The notes beneath the pieces were generated by a model. That model made no database searches. It was given only the letters and a program-made list of their open reading frames with translations, and was not told where the DNA came from. From the IMG/VR virus record IMGVR_UViG_3300024319_000502, positions 2,042 to 66,041 of that record: DNA of 64,000 bases, one strand, 5' to 3'. Within the stretch, counting starts at the first letter, position 1; each line of letters begins with the position of its first letter. This DNA is from a virus (lineage: Duplodnaviria > Caudoviricetes). The position numbers were made by a program, and so were the translations under genes. Positions 14,578 through 46,610 of this stretch are shown piece after piece.

Positions 14578-16116
14578 ATGGCAAAGAGAGTAGAACACGA
14601 CGACTTAACAGCAAAACAGAATGACTATGCAGTATTTTTACCAGCATTAAGTTCTTTTTATGCAACATTTATAGGTAAACAAAGAGTAGCTAACGACTAT
14701 GTTGATCCTCTACGTATGCCTAAGAACTTACCAGATATGGAACATTTAAACTGGTTAAACAGTCAGGAAGGTGTGTTTACTTATAAATGGTCGCTATACT
14801 CTGCAGGACATGCTAACTTAGATGTTACTGTAGATGCACCCAAAGAAGATATGGTTAGAAAGAGAGAGCCAGGTGCTTGGGTATTAGGCGATAGTGGTGG
14901 CTTTCAGATTGGTAAAGGTGTATGGGAAGGTGATTGGAAAAATCCTAACTGTCCTAAAGCTAAAAAGAAACGTGAGCAGGTGCTTAAATGGATGGACACT
15001 TACATGGACTATGGTATGATATTAGATATACCAGCCTGGGTATGTCGTTCACCAGAAGGACGTAAAGCTACAAACATTAATAGCTATGAAGAAGCTGTGC
15101 AAGGAACTTATATCAACAATGATTACTTTATTAATAATCGTACAGGTGCATGTAAGTTCTTAAATGTATTACAAGGTGAGAATCACACAGAAGCTGAAGA
15201 TTGGTATCAACGCATGAAGAAATACTGTGACCCAACACAGTATCCAGACAATCATTTCAATGGTTGGTCAATGGGTGGGCAAAACATGTGTGATATACAT
15301 TTAATCTTACATAGACTAGTTACTATCATACATGATGGCTTACTTAAAGAAGGTGTTCAAGATTGGATGCACTTCCTAGGCACATCAAAGCTGGAGTGGG
15401 CTACACTATTAACTGACATACAGCGTAGTATTAGAAAGCATCATAATCCTAAATTTACAATATCATTTGATTGTGCATCACCGTTCCTTGCTACAGCAAA
15501 TGGGCAGATATACACTGATGTTGAAACACCAGACAGAGGCAAATGGACTTATAGAATGCAATCAACTGCTGATGACAAGAAGTATTCAACAGATACTAGA
15601 CAGTTTAGTCAAGGTGTACTAGCAGATGGATTTCATACTACATTTAACGATTCACCAATATCACGCAACTTAGAGATGAAAGATATTTGTATATACAAGC
15701 CAGGTGACCTAAATAAGAATGGTAAAGAAGGTAAAACATCATGGGATAGTTTTAGTTACGCACTTATGATGGGACACAATGTTTGGCAACATCTTAATGC
15801 TGTACAAGAAGCTAATAGGCAGTATGATGCAGGACACTATCCTAAAATGTTAATACAAGAAACATTTGATACAGTAACATTTAGAGATGTATGTGAAGCT
15901 ATATTTTCAGCAGATACTAAAGAAGAATCAATGGCTATTATTGAGCATTATAGTAAGTTTTGGATGTCAATTATTGGCACTAGAGGAGCAACAGGTAAGA
16001 AGACTGTCAACGCAGGTACTATGTTTAATAATTTGTTTGATGTGTCAGAAGAAGAAGTAGTAGAAGATACATTAGACGAAGCAAAGTTAGATAAACTTGA
16101 AATGGAGGAATCATGA
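14578..16116 (+). CDS. TGT-fold transglycosylase, DpdA-like (7-deazaguanine insertion)
   Basis: TGT motifs in order: DSGGFQ, MILDIP, VLQG, SMGG, HFLG, SFDCASP. Confidence 0.85.
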   Translation: MAKRVEHDDLTAKQNDYAVFLPALSSFYATFIGKQRVANDYVDPLRMPKNLPDMEHLNWLNSQEGVFTYKWSLYSAGHANLDVTVDAPKEDMVRKREPGAWVLGDSGGFQIGKGVWEGDWKNPNCPKAKKKREQVLKWMDTYMDYGMILDIPAWVCRSPEGRKATNINSYEEAVQGTYINNDYFINNRTGACKFLNVLQGENHTEAEDWYQRMKKYCDPTQYPDNHFNGWSMGGQNMCDIHLILHRLVTIIHDGLLKEGVQDWMHFLGTSKLEWATLLTDIQRSIRKHHNPKFTISFDCASPFLATANGQIYTDVETPDRGKWTYRMQSTADDKKYSTDTRQFSQGVLADGFHTTFNDSPISRNLEMKDICIYKPGDLNKNGKEGKTSWDSFSYALMMGHNVWQHLNAVQEANRQYDAGHYPKMLIQETFDTVTFRDVCEAIFSADTKEESMAIIEHYSKFWMSIIGTRGATGKKTVNAGTMFNNLFDVSEEEVVEDTLDEAKLDKLEMEES

Positions 16117-21244: not shown

Positions 21245-21888
21245 GTAAAATACTAGCACTAGGAGATAGCTTTACCTGGGGCGAAGAGTTAGAAGATAGA
21301 CGTGATTGCTGGGCACAGCGAGTTGCTGATCACTTTAATCTTGAGTTGGACAATCAAGGTATTCCGGGCGGAAGTAACCAACGTGCTATGAGAATGTTAA
21401 TGATGCATACATTAAAAGATGTTAAACTAGTATGTATTGGGTGGAGTCACTTTGATAGATTTGAAGCCAGTGATGAACTAGGTACTTGGGATATATGGCC
21501 AGGTGGACAACGTAGTAAATATGTTAAAGAAGCAAGTTGGCGTAAGACATTAACAGATTATGTGTCAAGACATCATAATGATGACAATCTATACATGCAC
21601 TATCTAACTTATATTGTTCTTGTACAAAGTTATTTAAAACAAAAACAAGTTCCTTTTATTATGATGGATGCGTTTGGTAACAATGAGGATACAAGAAGAA
21701 CTGATAGTAAATTTAAAGTATTATTAGATCAAGTCAACTCAGATACATTTGTTGGGTGGCCTGACTCTACTATGATGGATTGGGCAAAAGACACTCCGCA
21801 TGGTCCAGGTAATCATTTTTTAGAACAAGGACACGAAATAGTAGCCGATAGAGTTATTAAACAAGTAAATAAAATATATGAACTATAA
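21241..21888 (+). CDS. SGNH/GDSL-like protein
   Basis: LGDSFTWG, GGSN, C-terminal HFLEQGH. Confidence 0.65.
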   Translation: MSKILALGDSFTWGEELEDRRDCWAQRVADHFNLELDNQGIPGGSNQRAMRMLMMHTLKDVKLVCIGWSHFDRFEASDELGTWDIWPGGQRSKYVKEASWRKTLTDYVSRHHNDDNLYMHYLTYIVLVQSYLKQKQVPFIMMDAFGNNEDTRRTDSKFKVLLDQVNSDTFVGWPDSTMMDWAKDTPHGPGNHFLEQGHEIVADRVIKQVNKIYEL

Positions 21889-22906
21889 TGAAGCAGAACT
21901 AGTACATTGGATGCAAAACAAGGACACTATGTCTTTGTTGCCTGCACAGGTTGACATTGACCTTACTAATGTCTGTAATCAAGACTGTTATTATTGTAAC
22001 TCAGTAGATTTTCGCAAGGACGAGCCTGTACAAAAGAAATATCACAAATACATTGAGCTGTTAGATAAGTTAGCAACCTGGAGAGCTCATACACCAAAAA
22101 GTTACGGAACAACACACACAATAACATACCCAGGTGGTGGCGAGCCAACTATACTAACAGGCTTTGAAAAGGTAATAGAACATACTGTAGATCAAGGCTT
22201 TCTTGGATCCATTACTACAAACGGTAGCTACTTAGACAAACTGTTTGATATGCCTGTAGAAAAACTTAAGAAATTAGCTTGGATAGGTATAGACATTGAT
22301 GCTGGCACTGAAGACTTGTATGAAAAGATAAGACGTAGTTTAGTTAAAGAGAATCTATTTGAACGTATGCAGTCTAATGCTCGAGAGTTAATTAAGAGAG
22401 GGGCTAACGTAGACTTTAAAGTATTACTATGTCCAGACAATGACACACCAGAAGCACTTGAAAACATATTCACATTTGTTAAAGGTCTAGGAGGTCGTAA
22501 AATATTCTTCCGTCCTGTTATTGTTAACGATAAGGCACATGACATTACATATCAAACACAGTCAACTATAGAACAATTAGGTCGCAAGTATAGCCAACCT
22601 TTTTGGATTAACAATAATAAAACACTGCCACGCAACTATAAACGCTGTCATCAAATGTATCACTTTCCTGTATTCTGTGCAAATGGTAAAATATATGTAT
22701 GCTGTGAAGGTAAGGGTAATCCACAGTTTGAACTAGGACAATGGGATGAAGGTGACTTTAGAGATATATGGATGAGTGAACGTCATCACGATATATACAA
22801 TAAAACAAACACTGGCCTATGTCAACCTTGTAGACCAAATAAGACTAATATTAATATACAGAACATGATAGATACACCACAACAGATAGAAGGATTATAT
22901 AAGTGA
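21878..22906 (+). CDS. Radical SAM enzyme with SPASM/twitch domain
   Basis: CNQDCYYC, GGGEP, TNG; C-terminal C...VCC...CQPC. Confidence 0.9.
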   Translation: MNYNEAELVHWMQNKDTMSLLPAQVDIDLTNVCNQDCYYCNSVDFRKDEPVQKKYHKYIELLDKLATWRAHTPKSYGTTHTITYPGGGEPTILTGFEKVIEHTVDQGFLGSITTNGSYLDKLFDMPVEKLKKLAWIGIDIDAGTEDLYEKIRRSLVKENLFERMQSNARELIKRGANVDFKVLLCPDNDTPEALENIFTFVKGLGGRKIFFRPVIVNDKAHDITYQTQSTIEQLGRKYSQPFWINNNKTLPRNYKRCHQMYHFPVFCANGKIYVCCEGKGNPQFELGQWDEGDFRDIWMSERHHDIYNKTNTGLCQPCRPNKTNINIQNMIDTPQQIEGLYK

Positions 22907-23262
22907 GTTTCTTCCCAAACATTGAATTATTTGATAGACTAGCTATTGCAGAAGTTAAACTAGCAAGAATTGGAGACAACCAAGAAGAAGTTGTGTGGTA
23001 CAGGCAACGGATAAACGAAAAAGAATTTAATCAAGTATATACTCACTTCCAAGAGCTTAAAGAAATACACGATACTATTTGGGACTTAGAAGGATTACTT
23101 AAATCAGGTCGAGAACAAGAACTAGGTTTAGAAGAAATTGGTCGACGTGCTATTGAGATACGTGACTGGAATAACAAGCGTGTTGCATTAAAAAATAAAA
23201 TAGCTGATATACTAGCAACGGATAACGTCAGAGAAATTAAAAAAGATCATTTAAGTGAATAA
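22903..23262 (+). CDS. Hypothetical helical protein
   Basis: ORF coupled to neighbours (ELFDRLAIAEVK...NNKRVALKNKI). Confidence 0.65.
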   Translation: MSFFPNIELFDRLAIAEVKLARIGDNQEEVVWYRQRINEKEFNQVYTHFQELKEIHDTIWDLEGLLKSGREQELGLEEIGRRAIEIRDWNNKRVALKNKIADILATDNVREIKKDHLSE

Positions 23263-23851
23263 TCCATTTGACTACATAACAGAGTTTGAAGAAGCACTGG
23301 CAAGTTATACAGGTGCTAGGTACTCTGTAATGACTGATTGTTGCACACACGCACTCGAACTATCGTTCTTAGCAACAGGTTTCAAACGAACACAGTTTAC
23401 TCCTTACACTTATATTTCAATACCAATGATGTTACATAAAATTGGTGTTAAGTTTGAGTATAATGATCAAGATAATTGGTTGGGAGAATACTACTTTTGG
23501 AACACTAACATCTGGGATTCAGCAAGAAAGCTAGCAGAAGGAATGTATAAACCAGGACAGATACAGTGTCTAAGTTTTGGTCACGATAAACCATTAACTA
23601 TTGGTCGTGGTGGTGCTATCCTACTAGATGATTATGAATTGTATAAGAAGCTTAAATTAATGTGCTATGATGGTAGAGACTTATCAATACAACCTTGGTC
23701 AAGTCAAGAACAATTTGAACTAGGTTATCACTATAAGCCTGTGCCTGAAGAAGCAGAACGTGCATTAACATTATTAGGCAGTCATGATCAAATGCCTAAA
23801 TACAAACAGTATCCTAACTTAAAAAATATTAAAATTAAATTGGATACATGA
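23255..23851 (+). CDS. Short DegT/DnrJ-type PLP aminotransferase
   Basis: DCCTHAL, WDSA, SFGHDKPLTIGRGGAIL (PLP lysine). Confidence 0.8.
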   Translation: MNNPFDYITEFEEALASYTGARYSVMTDCCTHALELSFLATGFKRTQFTPYTYISIPMMLHKIGVKFEYNDQDNWLGEYYFWNTNIWDSARKLAEGMYKPGQIQCLSFGHDKPLTIGRGGAILLDDYELYKKLKLMCYDGRDLSIQPWSSQEQFELGYHYKPVPEEAERALTLLGSHDQMPKYKQYPNLKNIKIKLDT

Positions 23852-23943: not shown

Positions 23944-24684
23944 ATGTCAATAGAAAATCACATTGATTGGAATGAAAAGCAAGACCCAGAAAAAGCATCA
24001 GTCAGTAAAGAAGTAAAACGTAGACTTGAAGCAAATGGAATACGTTATTGGGCTAATGATAACATCAGTGAAGTGCTGTTACCAGGTGACAAAGAAGCAC
24101 TTATCGAAGAAGCAGTTCCTGCTTTTGAAGAAGTATTACAAAAACTTTTAATAGATACAAAAACAGATCCAAATTCAATGGATACTGCAAGACGTATGGC
24201 TAAGATGTATATCAATGAGATAATGGCTGGACGTTATGAAGCAATGCCTAATCCTAGTGCGTTTCCAAACTATGTTGGCGAAGGTGGTTACGAAGGTATG
24301 TTGGTTGTACGTAGTGAGCTAACAAGTTTGTGTTCTCATCATCATCAGACAGTAAAAGGTGTAGCATACATTGGTATCATTGCAGGACCTAAACTATTAG
24401 GTTTAAGTAAGTACACTCGTATCGCTCAGTGGTGTGCTACAAGAGGTACACTACAAGAAGAACTTAATGTTATGATTGCTGATGCAATTCAAAAAGAAAC
24501 AGGTAGTGAACACGTTGGTGTGTATGTACAAGCAACACACGGGTGTTGTGAAAATAGAGGTATTAAAGCACATTCAAGTCTAACACAAACTACAGTATTA
24601 CGTGGTGCGTTTAGAAATGATCCAGCTACTAAGAAAGAGTTCATAGACAATGTTAAACTACAACAAGAGTTTGCCCAAAAGTAG
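23944..24684 (+). CDS. folE: GTP cyclohydrolase I
   Basis: TARRMAKMY, SLCSHH, GLSKYTRI, LQEE, HGCCENRG. Confidence 0.95.
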   Translation: MSIENHIDWNEKQDPEKASVSKEVKRRLEANGIRYWANDNISEVLLPGDKEALIEEAVPAFEEVLQKLLIDTKTDPNSMDTARRMAKMYINEIMAGRYEAMPNPSAFPNYVGEGGYEGMLVVRSELTSLCSHHHQTVKGVAYIGIIAGPKLLGLSKYTRIAQWCATRGTLQEELNVMIADAIQKETGSEHVGVYVQATHGCCENRGIKAHSSLTQTTVLRGAFRNDPATKKEFIDNVKLQQEFAQK

Positions 24685-27685: not shown

Positions 27686-28140
27686 TGATATTTGATAAAG
27701 TAAAACAACTTAAAGACCAAGGGTTAAGAATAGGAATAACATTCTCAACCTTTGACCTATTACACGCAGGGCATGTTGCTATGTTAAGTGAGTGCAAGAA
27801 TCATTGTGATTATCTGATAGCTGGCTTACAAACAGATCCTACACTAGACAGAGCAAACAAAAACAGTCCTATACAGTCAATAGTAGAAAGACAGATACAG
27901 ATAGGCTGTAATCGTTTCGTTGATGAAATTGTGGTATACCAAACGGAAAAAGATTTAGAAGATATCTTGCTTTCAATGCCAATAGATGTTAGAATATTAG
28001 GTGTAGAGTATGAGAACAAGGACTTTACTGGTAAAGATATTTGTAACAAAAGAGGAATTGAATTAGTATACAATGGCAGAGACCATTCATTTAGTTCAAG
28101 TTCATTACGTAAACGAGTAGCAGAAGCGGAGAAAAAATAA
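27685..28140 (+). CDS. Cytidylyltransferase (TagD-like)
   Basis: TFDLLHAGH, LIAGLQTDP, R...SSSSLR. Confidence 0.9.
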   Translation: MIFDKVKQLKDQGLRIGITFSTFDLLHAGHVAMLSECKNHCDYLIAGLQTDPTLDRANKNSPIQSIVERQIQIGCNRFVDEIVVYQTEKDLEDILLSMPIDVRILGVEYENKDFTGKDICNKRGIELVYNGRDHSFSSSSLRKRVAEAEKK

Positions 28141-28301
28141 TGGCATATGATGCAAAAGCAGTAAAGATACCAACAGAATTAAAAGTAATGGCGGCAAGTT
28201 TTCCTACTAAAGCAGAAGGCAAGGCTTTTATTAAAAGATTTGTTGCAATTAAAGAAGGTGAGTATAATAATTACCAAGCAAAGAAAAGAAGTGGTAAGTA
28301 A
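28140..28301 (+). CDS. Small basic hypothetical protein (53 aa, absent from the ORF track)
   Basis: MAYDAKAVKIPTELK...KKRSGK; TAATG coupling; GGAG SD. Confidence 0.65.
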   Translation: MAYDAKAVKIPTELKVMAASFPTKAEGKAFIKRFVAIKEGEYNNYQAKKRSGK

Positions 28302-28310
28302 TATACTCAA

Positions 28311-28374
28311 AGACGCCTTAAGACAGTCATCCGTCTCAAAATATTCTGCCTGTCATCAAACTTACTCACAGGAG
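28311..28374 (+). promoter_or_regulatory. Riboswitch-like leader of queD
   Basis: Stem AGACG/CGTCT; loop GACAG can pair with CTGTC, which overlaps CCTGT that alternatively pairs with ACAGG of the SD. Confidence 0.5.
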
Positions 28375-28381
28375 ACAAGAG

Positions 28382-28831
28382 ATGGCAACATACTACTCAA
28401 CTAAAACATACGGTCACAACATTGGCCTTTCAGCCTGCTTTAGGCAACCTAACGCTGATCATTCACATTGTCATTTACTACATGGCTACAGTTTACAATT
28501 TAAATTTACGTTTGCATGTAGTGAACTAGATAATAAAAACTGGGCAGTAGACTTTGGTGGACTTAAACAAGTTAAGAAATGGTTAGAAGATCACTTTGAT
28601 CATAAAACAGCTATTGACAAAGATGATCCACACCTAGATAAGTTTAAAGAACTTGAAGAAATGGATCTAGCAGAAATTGTAGTCATGGATGGTGTTGGTG
28701 CAGAAAAGTTTGCTGAACACGCATTTATGTTTGCAGACAAATTAATTAGAGAACAAACAAACGATCGTTGTTGGGTGCATTCAGTAGAGTGTGCGGAACA
28801 CGGTGCTAACTCAGCAATCTACGAGGGGTAA
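28382..28831 (+). CDS. queD: 6-carboxy-5,6,7,8-tetrahydropterin synthase
   Basis: CHLLHGY, VDFGGLK, FDHK, GAEKFAE, E..ANSAIY. Confidence 0.92.
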   Translation: MATYYSTKTYGHNIGLSACFRQPNADHSHCHLLHGYSLQFKFTFACSELDNKNWAVDFGGLKQVKKWLEDHFDHKTAIDKDDPHLDKFKELEEMDLAEIVVMDGVGAEKFAEHAFMFADKLIREQTNDRCWVHSVECAEHGANSAIYEG

Positions 28832-28833
28832 TA

Positions 28834-28923
28834 ATGGAAACAGAAGCAATAATTGGATTAATAATTATGGTAGCGATAGTGGCTATTGCAACTGCGGTAT
28901 CATTAAAGGATAAAGATGACTAA
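28834..28923 (+). CDS. Tiny single-TM peptide (29 aa)
   Basis: METEAIIGLIIMVAIVAIATAVSLKDKDD; GAGG SD. Confidence 0.55.
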   Translation: METEAIIGLIIMVAIVAIATAVSLKDKDD

Positions 28924-29377
28924 GAAAGCATATTATACATGGTCGCAAGTTGAAGAAATGACACAGGACATTATTAGACAACTGCACGTGGATCAACAGA
29001 ATATTGACTGTGTAGTTGGGCTCACAAGGGGCGGTTTAACGCCCGCTGTGCTGGTTTCACAGTATCTAGACATACCAATGCACGCCGTAAAGGTAAGCTT
29101 ACGTGATCACGTAGGAGCAGAGGATCTTGAAAAGATCAAAGAAGATATTGGTATCGATAAAGGCAAACGAGTGTTAGTGATAGATGATATCAATGATACT
29201 GGTGCTACTATATCAGCTATTAAAGATGTATGGGGGACTGACACAGTGACTTATGCAGTATTAATTAACAATGAAGCTAGTACAGAAGATGTTGATTACT
29301 CAAGCATGGACATTAACAAACACGAAGAAAATGTTTGGCAAGTGTTTCCTTGGGAGGACTGGTGGCAATGGAGTTAG
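28916..29377 (+). CDS. Type I phosphoribosyltransferase (xanthine/guanine PRT-like)
   Basis: GLTRGGL, VLVIDDINDTGAT (PRPP loop), WQVFPWE. Confidence 0.9.
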   Translation: MTKKAYYTWSQVEEMTQDIIRQLHVDQQNIDCVVGLTRGGLTPAVLVSQYLDIPMHAVKVSLRDHVGAEDLEKIKEDIGIDKGKRVLVIDDINDTGATISAIKDVWGTDTVTYAVLINNEASTEDVDYSSMDINKHEENVWQVFPWEDWWQWS

Positions 29378-31224: not shown

Positions 31225-32091
31225 TTGAAAAAACTTAAAGTAGCAGAGATATTTTACAGTTTACAAGGTGAAGGTAAATGGGCTGGTGTTCCTAGTGTAT
31301 TCTTAAGAACGTTTGGCTGTAACTTTCAATGTAGAGGGTTTGGTTTACCTAGAGGTGAGCAAACTACACAACCTGAGGAAATAGCCGAAGCAGTTGCAGA
31401 GTTTAAAACATATGAAGAACTTCCGTTGGCAAATACTGGTTGTGATAGTTATGCGTCATGGCATCCAAAGTTTAAGCATTTATCTCCAGTATTAGAAACT
31501 GGTGCAGTTCGAGAGCGTATGGAAGATCTTATTCCTCACAATACTTGGACACAAGACAACTATGAAGATGTACACTTAGTCATTACAGGTGGCGAACCGT
31601 TATTAGGTTGGCAACGTAGCTATCCTGAACTAATTGCATCATGTATGGATAACGGCTTACAAAACGTTACGTTTGAAACTAATGGTACACAACCATTGCA
31701 TGAAGATTTTAAAACATTCTTTAAAACAGTATGGCACGAAGAACGTGGATATCAAAAGTTAACGTTTTCAGTGAGTGCTAAACTACCTGATTCAGGTGAG
31801 AAGTGGGAAGAAGCTATACTTCCAAATGTGGTCACAGAATACGAAAATTACGGATATACATACTTAAAGTTTGTAGTAGCAACTGAAGAGGATGTTAAGG
31901 ATGTTGATCGTGCAGTAAAAGAATATAGATCAGCAGGATTCAAAGGACCAATATACTTGATGCCTATCGGTGGACTACCTGAAGACTATCATTTAAATAC
32001 AGCACAAGTTGCTGAGTTAGCTATGGCAAGAGGTTATAGATATTCACCTAGACTGCAAGTTGACATATGGAGAAACGCTTGGGGAACTTAA
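31225..32091 (+). CDS. queE: 7-carboxy-7-deazaguanine synthase (radical SAM)
   Basis: EIFYSLQGEG, FLRTFGCNFQC...CDS, TGGEP, ETNG, SPRLQ. Confidence 0.92.
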   Translation: MKKLKVAEIFYSLQGEGKWAGVPSVFLRTFGCNFQCRGFGLPRGEQTTQPEEIAEAVAEFKTYEELPLANTGCDSYASWHPKFKHLSPVLETGAVRERMEDLIPHNTWTQDNYEDVHLVITGGEPLLGWQRSYPELIASCMDNGLQNVTFETNGTQPLHEDFKTFFKTVWHEERGYQKLTFSVSAKLPDSGEKWEEAILPNVVTEYENYGYTYLKFVVATEEDVKDVDRAVKEYRSAGFKGPIYLMPIGGLPEDYHLNTAQVAELAMARGYRYSPRLQVDIWRNAWGT

Positions 32092-32831
32092 TATCTAATT
32101 TGCTTGACGATCCAGGGAAAGTTAGTTGGCAGTGGGCAGTTAGTATTATATCAATTGTATGTTTAATTCTAGGTAAATTTGCCTGGATTGACTTGTTATG
32201 GATTCTTATAGCACATTACGTTATATATCTAGTAGGCTTAGAAATTGGATACCATAAACTACTAGCTCATAAGGCATTTAAAACTAATAGTTGGATTAAA
32301 AACATATTAGCATTTATAGGTAATATAACATGCCATCCACCTGTCCTACAATGGGTAACTATACACAGATTGCATCATGCAACCAGTGACGGGTTAGGTG
32401 ATCCACATTCTCCCTGGGTTCCAAAAAGAGGTCTGCTATCATATCTATTTTTTACCAGATGGGAACCTATGGTTAGAGAGTACGAGTTTAAAAATGATAA
32501 ATTTTTAATATGGTTAACTAATCATCAAGGACTATGCTTATGGTTTACAACAGCTATATTATTATCGTTTTTTGATCTAACAACTGTGTTAGTTTGGTTT
32601 GCTATCCCAAGTATAATATCACCTTACTGTTTAGGACTAGCTAACTATGTTACACACCAAGGAAAACATAACGGATACGATCATGCACAGAATTGGTATT
32701 GGATAGAACCTATAGCACCAGGTATGGGCTTTCATGGTAATCATCACGATAAACCAGGTACTTGGACTTTAGCAAAAAAATATTGGTGGATTGACTTATC
32801 AAGCATTATTGTAAAATTAATAAAAAGGTAG
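32067..32831 (+). CDS. Membrane fatty-acid desaturase (delta-9-like)
   Basis: His boxes HKLLAH, HRLHH, HGNHH; DPHSP. Confidence 0.9.
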   Translation: MEKRLGNLISNLLDDPGKVSWQWAVSIISIVCLILGKFAWIDLLWILIAHYVIYLVGLEIGYHKLLAHKAFKTNSWIKNILAFIGNITCHPPVLQWVTIHRLHHATSDGLGDPHSPWVPKRGLLSYLFFTRWEPMVREYEFKNDKFLIWLTNHQGLCLWFTTAILLSFFDLTTVLVWFAIPSIISPYCLGLANYVTHQGKHNGYDHAQNWYWIEPIAPGMGFHGNHHDKPGTWTLAKKYWWIDLSSIIVKLIKR

Positions 32832-41692: not shown

Positions 41693-42790
41693 ATGTCAGA
41701 CGTAAGAACAATAACATCAGAAGAAGCAAGAAACAGTTTATTAAAATGCTTTAACAAACAACGCCCAATATTTTTATGGGGGCCTCCAGGGATTGGTAAA
41801 TCAGAACTAGTTGCATCTGTTGCTGAGGAACTAGATGGACTAATGTATGATCTACGTTTAGGTCAAATGGATCCAACAGATATCAGAGGTATTCCTTTTT
41901 ATAATAAAGATAACGGCACAATGGATTGGGCACCTCCAATTGATTTACCTGATGTTGACACTGCAAGTAAGTATCCAGTGGTTGTATTATTTTTAGATGA
42001 AATGAACTCAGCGGCTCCTGCTGTACAGGCCGCGGCATATCAACTAATATTAAACAGACGTGTTGGTAAGTATCAACTTCCAGACAACGTTGTTATGGTA
42101 GCCGCAGGTAACAGAGAATCAGATAAAGGTGTTACTTATAGAATGCCTACTCCGCTAGCAAACAGATTTATTCATCAAGAAATGAGAGTAGACTTTGATT
42201 CATGGGAACACTGGGCAGTTAAAAATAAAGTGCATAAAGATGTAGTTGGTTACCTTGCATCAAGTAAACAAGACTTATATGACTTTGATCCAAAAGGTGC
42301 TAGTCGTTCATTTGCTACACCTCGTTCATGGACATTTGTTAGTGACTTGTTAGAAGATGATACTACTGATAAGCCAACATTAACTAACTTAATTGCTGGT
42401 GCAATTGGCGAAGGACTTGCTGTTAAATTTATGGCACATAGAAAAGTTGCTAGTGAAATGCCTAACCCAACAGACATCTTAGAAGGCAAAGAAAAAGATC
42501 TTAAGGTTAAAGATATATCAGCTATGTATGCCTTAGTTGTTTCGATGTGTTATGAGCTTAAAGAGCGTCAAGATAAAGATACTGCAGAAGCAGAGTTTAA
42601 TAGATATGTTGACAACTTCTTTGAGTATATGATGAAAAACTTTGAGACTGAAATTACCGTTATGGGTGCTCGTACTGCTCTTACTACATATGATTTAAAA
42701 TTTAGTCCAACTAAACTTAAATCGTTTGATAAGTTTCATGAGAAGTATGGTAAGTATATTCTTAAAGGCTCAGTTGGACATGAGCGATAG
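41693..42790 (+). CDS. MoxR-type AAA+ ATPase
   Basis: GPPGIGKS, LFLDEMN, AAGNR, PLANRF, TPRSW. Confidence 0.9.
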   Translation: MSDVRTITSEEARNSLLKCFNKQRPIFLWGPPGIGKSELVASVAEELDGLMYDLRLGQMDPTDIRGIPFYNKDNGTMDWAPPIDLPDVDTASKYPVVVLFLDEMNSAAPAVQAAAYQLILNRRVGKYQLPDNVVMVAAGNRESDKGVTYRMPTPLANRFIHQEMRVDFDSWEHWAVKNKVHKDVVGYLASSKQDLYDFDPKGASRSFATPRSWTFVSDLLEDDTTDKPTLTNLIAGAIGEGLAVKFMAHRKVASEMPNPTDILEGKEKDLKVKDISAMYALVVSMCYELKERQDKDTAEAEFNRYVDNFFEYMMKNFETEITVMGARTALTTYDLKFSPTKLKSFDKFHEKYGKYILKGSVGHER

Positions 42791-46534: not shown

Positions 46535-46610
46535 GCTGGCATAGCTCAGTTGGTAGAGCAACGCACTTGTAATGCGTAGGTCCTCAGTTCGAATCCGAGT
46601 GCCAGCACCA
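46535..46610 (+). tRNA. tRNA-Thr(UGU)
   Basis: 76 nt cloverleaf: acceptor GCTGGCA/TGCCAGC, anticodon arm ACGCA-CTTGTAA-TGCGT, TTCGAAT loop, encoded CCA. Confidence 0.95.

Follow-up and report, generated by a model that had tools for sequence, protein, structure and literature searches.

The window analysed here is a stretch of 64,000 nucleotides (nt) of viral DNA, positions 2,042 to 66,041 of the IMG/VR record IMGVR_UViG_3300024319_000502, a viral contig of 66,041 base pairs (bp) with a CheckV completeness of 19%. On the plus strand, at 28382-28831, it carries a queD-like gene whose product of 149 amino acids (aa) is a T-fold enzyme of the PTPS/QueD family, matching Pfam PTPS (1.9e-15) and phrog_2389 (4.1e-42) and reaching 38.6 bits with the NCBIfam QueD equivalog, under the cut-off of 89. 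The neighbouring plus-strand genes mostly overlap or abut, and the map of open reading frames (ORFs) bore out that this array is interrupted by a gap of 80 nt between a 53-aa ORF, ending at 28301, and the ATG start codon of the queD-like gene at 28382-28384, with a Shine-Dalgarno (SD) sequence AGGAG at 28370-28374. A first-pass annotation of the window had placed a candidate riboswitch in this gap, and the pairings it drew there, two helices forming a pseudoknot and a competing CCTGT/ACAGG pairing that overlaps the SD, are all found exactly at the positions it gave, with the TAAGTA box it noted just 5' of the gap. We describe this queD leader, which is almost certainly a functional cis-regulatory RNA of queD and which, as suggested with somewhat less than firm confidence by comparative sequence analysis, is probably a cis-acting, metabolite-sensing riboswitch controlling translation of the queD-like gene.

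The pseudoknot and its covariation

Judged from the single window sequence, the pairings are not beyond chance: the leader alone has a minimum free energy (MFE) of -15.7 kcal/mol (z = -1.57) and 14 of 200 shuffled sequences fold equally well. The case for a structure lies in the covariation among relatives of the leader and not in the single-sequence fold. By this comparison, nucleotides 28311-28355 were shown to have the conserved pairing pattern of an H-type pseudoknot, in which a helix P1 of 5 bp is crossed by a helix P2 of 5 + 2 bp built around an invariant U.C mismatch. All of its parts lie on the plus strand. P1 joins AGACG (28311-28315) to CGTCT (28332-28336) and is topped by the invariant G28315 and C28332. 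The loop that follows its 5' strand, L1 (28316-28321), varies in length among relatives, and its second and third positions, C28317 and U28318, are each kept in 88 of 89 aptamers. The 5' strand of P2 (28322-28329) consists of GACAG (28322-28326), the unpaired invariant U28327, and C28328 and A28329; it is separated from the 3' strand of P1 by loop L2 (28330-28331), where a variable U28330 precedes the invariant C28331. After P1 comes loop L3 (CAAAATATTC, 28337-28346), an A-rich stretch followed by the invariant A28343, U28345 and C28346, and finally the 3' strand of P2 (28347-28354), made up of U28347, G28348, the unpaired invariant C28349 and CTGTC (28350-28354). The two-pair extension of P2 past the U28327.C28349 mismatch, C28328-G28348 and A28329-U28347, was absent from the first-pass drawing.

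Three sets of leaders support this model. The first consists of 34 distinct leaders found by QueD homology only and aligned from P1 to P2 with MAFFT, no structure being imposed. In this set the 12-pair pseudoknot leaves 92.4% of the cells paired, compared to 36-54% with slid partners, 10 of the 12 pairs are altered on both sides, and the covariation score of 0.469 (0.149 in shuffled alignments) is reached by none of 500 shuffles. RNAalifold, which is blind to pseudoknots, picks P2 unaided and includes the two-pair extension. A pooled alignment of 89 distinct aptamers gives 95.3% paired cells, 240 cells with both sides changed and a score of 0.573 versus 0.161 (0/500 shuffles). In a replicate from metagenome contigs, comprising 67 distinct aptamers of which 55 are new, 95.3% of the cells are again paired and the score of 0.525 versus 0.148 is likewise not reached by any of 500 shuffles; slid controls over all three sets pair in 32-59% of the cells. 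Both P1 and the loop pseudoknot, which the first-pass annotation had proposed from the window, thus covary in queD leaders of related phages, in 34, 89 and 67 distinct leaders. Four of the five P1 pairs covary (AU/UA, GC/CG, GC/AU), the top pair G28315-C28332 being GC in all 89 aptamers, and all five variable pairs of P2 do so; among these, A28329-U28347 has A-U in 64 aptamers and G-C in the other 25, and is never left unpaired. The view that these are chance complementarities in an ordinary promoter-bearing spacer, to which the unremarkable single-sequence fold would lend some credit, is refuted by this covariation, no shuffle reaching the score in any of the sets, and its probability is practically negligible.

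The 89 aptamers also contain 39 G-U cells that fit only the sense strand of queD, the other strand having A.C mismatches, and therefore the RNA is that of the queD sense strand. Aptamer length ranges from 38 to 51 nt, and the differences do not come in multiples of three. This speaks against coding, including by an overlapping 54-aa ORF with a TTG start (28240-28404); this ORF was rejected as an unlikely coding sequence on the length differences and the pair covariation.

Ten positions are invariant: G28315, U28327, C28328, C28331, C28332, A28343, U28345, C28346, G28348 and C28349. The same ten are invariant in the leaders found by QueD homology only and in all 89. They ring the junction between P1 and P2, comprising the top G-C pair of P1, the C before its 3' strand, the end of L3, and the two lowest pairs of P2 together with the U.C mismatch. 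At the position before C28331 (U28330 in the window), 43 of the aptamers have A, 34 have U and 12 have C. L3 contains AAA in 82 of the 89, the other seven having an L3 that is 4 nt shorter, and its A28343, U28345 and C28346 are each present in 89/89.

Distribution and linkage to queD

Relatives of the window's QueD were collected from IMG/VR, the best 80 of 167 (80-95% identity) being taken and their upstream 100 nt compared; individual loci retrieved for comparison carry L-numbers. At 53 of these 80 loci the motif model finds the element, always 15-40 nt before queD and with no second copy within 3 kb on either side. A DNA pattern derived from the conserved core, and thus blind to the gene, was then scanned over viral contigs, where it hit at least 120 stretches, of which 80 loci were examined. 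Of the loci listed, 79 of 80 match the motif model (R1) at 32.6-64.7 bits and one does not; 78 of the 79 listed matches precede a QueD homolog within about 40 nt, with 34-85% identity to the window's, and the remaining one lies on a contig that ends 62 nt past the motif. With the same pattern, metagenome contigs yielded 74 model matches in 73 of 80 loci, the other seven being without a match at the thresholds used. Here 71 of the 74 precede a QueD-like ORF, two are cut off by contig ends and one is a degenerate duplicate. A QueD-type gene is thus found downstream of every match with a readable downstream gene, except one. Locus L318 has promoter and aptamer duplicated within 1.2 kb on its minus strand: the copy at 949-993 precedes QueD, and the copy at 2112-2156, in which by inspection only three of the five variable P2 pairs are possible, sits 1.1 kb upstream of the first and is followed by two ORFs with signal peptides (154 and 177 aa), neither of which matches Pfam.

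The window contains a single copy of the motif, at 55.8 bits, the runner-up being a match of 11.2 bits at 22481-22516. Five long phage records, among them a genome of 381,886 bp rated 100% complete, have one copy each. The genes flanking queD are very different from one locus to the next (UvdE, a DAHP-synthase-family gene, PMM, ClpX and unknowns), and therefore the RNA goes with queD and not with an operon. The first-pass proposal that the leaders of folE and queD form one RNA-regulated system found no support, no motif copy lying at folE.

Scanning 596 Gb of prokaryote genomes with the pattern gave 76 matches, compared to about 84 expected by chance (hand estimate). Only five of these are strong (47.9-53.7 bits); all five lie on contigs of 4-32 kb from metagenome-assembled genomes (MAGs), before QueD homologs and behind TATAAT-like boxes. 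Two Streptomyces matches, L240 3363-3405 (+) at 28.0 bits and L244 4722-4764 (-) at 26.4 bits, were rejected: no P1 can be drawn, both lie upstream of an orthologous, unrelated ORF of about 410 aa, and they probably reflect chance plus orthology. A blastn search of cultured phages with the leader found nothing real, and the QueD homologs of GenBank phages (99 records) are all less than 60% identical to the window's. So far the element is known exclusively from contigs of uncultured phages or MAGs.

Covariation, gene association and position fit any cis-regulatory RNA, and so strict a tie to a single protein family would be in keeping with autoregulation by that protein, so that the pseudoknot could also be a protein binding site, recognised by QueD itself or by a phage translational regulator and serving to control queD translation, or to nucleate its repression, without any small molecule. 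The leader pseudoknot of T4 gene 32 is a phage example that serves protein autoregulation. However, ten invariant, mostly unpaired nucleotides at the helical junction of an RNA of 38-51 nt are typical of small-molecule aptamers, as is a start-codon helix that excludes the aptamer fold (see below), and the core of the RNA is invariant even though the downstream QueD proteins fall to 34% identity. Moreover, no QueD-family enzyme is known to bind RNA. We consider a protein site unlikely, and judging from its sequence conservation the queD leader likely binds a small molecule.

Upstream of P1 the leader has a promoter-like stretch (28295-28307, +), with TAAGTA at 28295-28300, the -10-like hexamers TAATAT (28299-28304) and TATACT (28302-28307), and the stop codon of the upstream ORF at 28299-28301. 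A simple scan for a two-hexamer sigma-70 promoter found none at the leader. Boxes were counted in 86 distinct upstream stretches of 40 nt, three of the 89 leaders being dropped because they have less than 40 nt upstream or are duplicates. Of these, 32 have TATAAT, 26 have TAAATA and 23 have TAAGTA, compared to shuffled means of 6.1, 7.7 and 2.6; in 30/86 the end of a perfect TATAAT lies 3-16 nt ahead of P1 (2.3 in shuffles). The TAAGTA box noted by the first-pass annotation, which we take to resemble, like TAAATA, the late-promoter box of T4, is enriched upstream of the motif but not in the window as a whole, where it has 62 matches against 82 expected; in L013, L016 and L017, the closest relatives of the window, a TAAATA stands at the aligned position.

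A position at or near the predicted 5' end of a transcript would also suit a structural element that senses nothing: it might stabilise the 5' end of the mRNA, enhance translation constitutively or fold in dependence on temperature or ions, and small pseudoknots can indeed protect 5' ends. Such an element gives no account of the exclusive linkage to QueD across unrelated neighbourhoods with one copy per genome, nor of the invariant loop nucleotides, and we regard it as very unlikely.

Likeness to known riboswitches

The first-pass annotation had seen no match to the preQ1 classes, and the searches agree with it. When the leader stretch of the window, L001 and 14 additional loci were scanned with the 4227 models of Rfam 15, the preQ1 classes included, no model matched the motif up to E = 10 and the only hits were chance ones at other places. 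A search of the whole 66-kb record with the preQ1-I model RF00522 at E ≤ 10 gave nothing at the locus, its sole match (9.4 bits) being at 42337-42361 of that record; the leader stays under the RF00522 gathering threshold of 39 bits. The only Rfam match in the window at gathering threshold is a tRNA gene (46535-46607, +, 72.4 bits).

By the tests run, the queD leader resembles the preQ1-I aptamer in outline and is not a member of that class. In the parts of PMC11625349 consulted here, class I preQ1 riboswitches are described as H-type pseudoknots in which a cytosine 5' of the P1 3' strand pairs with the ligand, this specificity cytosine following a U in type I and an A in types II and III; a conserved G-C pair forms the floor of the pocket, an A-rich L3 lines the minor groove of P1, and an L1 uridine (U6) and an L3 adenine (A30) read the other edge of the ligand. 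The queD leader is likewise a small H-type pseudoknot before a gene of the queuosine/7-deazaguanine pathway, with crossing helices P1 and P2 that are supported by covariation. Set beside the features described in those parts of the paper, its P1 also has 5 bp, with an invariant G-C as the closing pair, an invariant C stands before the P1 3' strand, preceded by A, U or C, and its L3 is A-rich with the invariant A28343, yet ends in an invariant UC and not in A.

Unlike preQ1-I, the queD leader has no U6: of the 89 aptamers, 82 have A at this position, six have U and one has C. The window has C there, followed by the near-invariant CU. Further differences are that P1 is followed by ACU and not by U or UU, that P2 has seven pairs around the invariant U.C mismatch where preQ1-I has three to four, and that the SD lies outside P2, with a predicted wiring that is ON and not OFF. 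We infer from the analogy in position with the preQ1-I specificity cytosine that C28331 is a candidate specificity base.

Other known systems share single features with the leader. The add adenine riboswitch is a translational ON switch in which the 3' strand of an aptamer helix covers the start site until ligand binding withdraws it, the same strand-sharing logic as proposed for the queD leader; its aptamer is, however, a three-way junction and not a pseudoknot, and no purine riboswitch of Rfam matches at the leader. SAM-II, SAM-V (SAM being S-adenosylmethionine), fluoride, guanidine-III, preQ1-II and preQ1-III riboswitches are, like the queD leader, compact pseudoknot aptamers next to a ribosome binding site (RBS), but differ in gene association and gave no Rfam match. 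Some H-type pseudoknot riboswitches are common in marine sequence. The manA and wcaG motifs, candidate riboswitches borne by phages, are described as structured leaders that accompany auxiliary metabolic genes and are nearly confined to phages and marine metagenomes (Weinberg et al. 2010, PMC2864571); their genes and structures differ from those of the queD leader. The main text of that paper has no queD, pyruvoyl, preQ1, deazaguanine or pterin term and that of PMC5737381 no queD or pyruvoyl term, the supplementary motif lists of both being outside the scope. Full-text literature searches found no description of the motif; supplementary motif lists, again outside their scope, could bear on its novelty.

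Start-site pairing, proposed switching and pathway context

The SD and AUG sit 11-39 nt 3' of P2 in the leaders compared, and in the window the 3' strand of P2 has two possible partners downstream of the pseudoknot. An anti-start strand UGUCAUC (28351-28357, +), which overlaps this P2 strand by 4 nt, can form 7 bp, one of them G-U, with the start region GAUGGCA (28381-28387, +), in which the start codon lies at 28382-28384. The alternative drawn by the first-pass annotation pairs CCTGT (28349-28353) with ACAGG (28368-28372), which overlaps the SD (28368-28374 in all, +). This duplex is present in the window, at -4.6 kcal/mol and in the MFE structure, but is not kept outside the window's clade, close relatives having TTTAGG or CATAGG in place of ACAGG. 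The translational ON switch by mutually exclusive pairings that had been built on it fits as regards the wiring through a shared P2 3' strand, while the more widely kept partner is the start codon and not the SD. Between the two pairing regions lies a linker element (CAAACTTACTC, 28357-28367, +), kept as CAAACTT(A/G)CT in a subset of leaders, for which no pairing partner was found; it resembles the coding start ATGACTTAC of another clade. No terminator-like site was found at the leader.

Anti-start pairing recurs with other bases in other leaders, namely as AAGUCAUC/GAUGACUU, UGCCAUC/GAUGGCA, UGUCAUUG/CAAUGGCA and CCCAUAA/UUAUGGG, and the non-coding bases before AUG covary with those after CAU (CATC/GATG, CATTG/CAATG, CATTA/TAATG, CATAA/TTATG). 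At least six contiguous pairs that cover at least 2 nt of the start codon are found in 31 of 65 distinct leaders, compared to 16.7 with permuted partners (0/1000 permutations reach this), and the mean run is 5.45 with the own and 4.76 with permuted partners; L156, whose contig ends before the start codon, was left out of the duplex, openness and anti-start counts. The 36 distinct P2 3' strands pair with their own RBS at -5.1 kcal/mol and with those of others at -4.3 (p = 0.023).

In ensembles predicted without the pseudoknot, the openness of the less open of SD and AUG over 84 leaders is 0.07 with the natural aptamer, rises to 0.33 once the aptamer is locked away and stands at 0.18 when it is shuffled (natural versus shuffled, Wilcoxon p = 1.6e-10); for the window the respective values are 0.01, 0.19 and 0.17. 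It falls below 0.1 in 63/84 natural leaders versus 20/84 locked ones. The 3' strand of P2 being the start-covering strand, a ligand that stabilises P2 should therefore open the start site, and by these predictions the putative expression platform is probably an ON switch.

Other ways of closing the RBS were considered. Sequestration of the SD as a general, conserved mechanism was rejected on the energies of own versus mismatched partners, the P2 3' strand and the SD region being weakly paired over all leaders (-2.42 versus -2.10 kcal/mol), and on the comparison with shuffled aptamers. Neither the 5' strand of P1 nor the tail showed a difference between own and permuted partners when paired with the SD (335/500 and 87/500 permutations, respectively, reach the own value), and both were rejected. 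In clades with a short linker, pyrimidines at the junction of L3 and P2 (CUCC or CUCU) face GGAG; both are invariant and hence give no covariation signal.

The same arrangement could conversely be read as an OFF riboswitch giving end-product feedback, in which the ligand-bound pseudoknot, 11-39 nt before the AUG, hinders the 30S subunit or docks onto the SD. QueD is a biosynthetic enzyme and every known preQ1 class is an OFF switch (PMC11625349, in the parts consulted). In keeping with such hindrance, the aptamer ends at most 21 nt from the AUG in 53 of 88 leaders. A preQ1-I riboswitch reportedly, going by the title of one paper, still regulates when separated from the ribosome binding site. 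Against an OFF switch, in all 88 leaders whose start could be read the SD is located downstream of P2 and never within it, the predicted ensembles show a more open RBS, not a more closed one, when the aptamer is locked, and the 3' strand of P2 complements the start region more than permuted partners do. An OFF riboswitch is thus quite improbable, and if a small molecule is bound there is a good likelihood that the switch is ON.

We therefore favour an ON riboswitch for the queD leader, which would work as follows. Without ligand, nucleotides 28351-28357, that is the P2 3' strand and the AUC that follows, would pair with GAUGGCA (28381-28387) and cover the start codon, a step for which the pairing data above provide part of the evidence; in the window, CCUGU (28349-28353) could alternatively cover the SD. 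A guanine-like heterocycle, we infer, would pair with C28331 on top of G28315-C28332, as the ligand does in class I preQ1 riboswitches, and the P2 thus stabilised would withdraw the covering strand, free the RBS and turn translation on. Candidate ligands are 7-deazaguanines, namely 7-carboxy-7-deazaguanine (CDG), preQ0 and preQ1, or a pterin such as the substrate of QueD; given binding, a ligand of the guanine, deazaguanine or pterin type is, by analogy, somewhat probable.

Several points weigh against this reading. The sequences compared are related, and the shuffle and Wilcoxon figures overstate their independence; the pattern scans moreover fix part of the invariant positions by construction, a bias from which the QueD-derived set is free. 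Of the 65 distinct leaders, 34 have a short anti-start helix or none. When this helix is aligned with MAFFT in a fixed register, only 59.6% of its cells pair, compared to 30-49% in slid controls, and its score of 0.184 versus 0.133 is reached by none of 500 shuffles, but changes on both sides number four, versus 4.9 in shuffles (500/500 reach). The complementarity of CAU and AUG could be partly coincidental, both being conserved for other reasons. The SD alone is closed no better by natural than by shuffled aptamers (0.37 versus 0.33, p = 0.76), and biosynthetic genes are more usually under OFF than under ON switches. As to distribution, 27 of the best 80 of 167 QueD loci are without the element; at these, queD overlaps the upstream gene, or the spacer is different, or there is too little upstream sequence, at least L047 and L080 having less than 40 nt (L047 retains the 3' half of the motif). 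The element is also missing from the four cultured phages examined, where the model reaches 7.7 bits at most. Finally, the leader occurs without variants in contigs of four seawater metatranscriptome runs (X16, 28154-28642; X17, 28030-28563; X18, 27946-28486; X2, via two overlapping contigs), and these contigs from RNA libraries cross it from the upstream gene with no sign of a start at P1. They show neither start nor strand, nor transcription itself, and may reflect read-through transcription or DNA carry-over.

FolE, QueD and QueE together make CDG, and the window has folE at 23944-24684 and a QueE-like radical SAM gene at 31225-32091 (phrog_2076, 2.9e-56). A Gpt-like phosphoribosyltransferase gene (28916-29377) follows queD; a CDG phosphoribosyltransferase route is known from tubercidin synthesis. 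The gap of 84 nt between these two genes (28832-28915) contains neither a motif-model match nor a terminator-like site. Also near queD are genes for an S8 protease, a cytidylyltransferase-like protein, a GT2 protein and a methyltransferase. Flanking the folE-queD-queE region are a radical SAM/SPASM enzyme (21878-22906), a fragment of a DegT-type aminotransferase (23255-23851) and a desaturase-like protein (32067-32831), which suggests further chemistry on a sugar or base.

FolE and QueE are encoded in all five long phage records (reached via L002, L126, L100, L119 and L111) and a Gpt-like phosphoribosyltransferase in four; no QueC above cut-off and no Pfam TGT was found in any of the five. This looks like a QueC-less deazapurine pathway. 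In the 381,886-bp genome, queD lies about 50 kb from folE and queE. A supply of precursors for DNA modification, the purpose named by the first-pass annotation, gained no backing from the 66-kb record, which has no Pfam match to QueC, TGT or DpdA and whose proposed TGT-like ORF shows a language-model resemblance only. Sequence comparison of this ORF of 512 aa (14578-16116, +) with Pfam TGT and DpdA, PHROG, NCBIfam and PDB gave no match. In the ESM Atlas it resembles viral clusters, PF01702 being carried by 17% of the members of one of them (score 0.94), and also a DpdA cluster (0.89). Homologs occur in four of the five long records, within about 6-7 kb of folE and queE, and the ORF may, as a lead only, be a far-diverged DNA transglycosylase.

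A more far-reaching and tentative possibility, to which we give a rather low probability, is that the leader represents a phage-only riboswitch class that responds to a 7-deazaguanine or pterin pathway intermediate for which there is no known riboswitch, such as CDG or dihydroneopterin triphosphate (H2NTP), the product of FolE, and turns queD on, timing the QueC-less deazapurine pathway in giant phages. Such a class would either have branched off from preQ1-I and diverged far, or have arrived at a similar pocket by convergence.

Should ligand binding be confirmed, the queD leader would be a new riboswitch class, so far present only in uncultured phage sequences. With an aptamer of less than 50 nt it is easy to study, and it is near enough to preQ1-I to ask how the pocket is re-tuned. 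As a compact natural ON switch, the motif could possibly be useful as a tool as well. Its ON logic, if true, would be opposite to that of every known preQ1 class and would offer a handle on the regulation of 7-deazapurine synthesis in giant aquatic phages, where the ligand could reveal which intermediate matters during infection.

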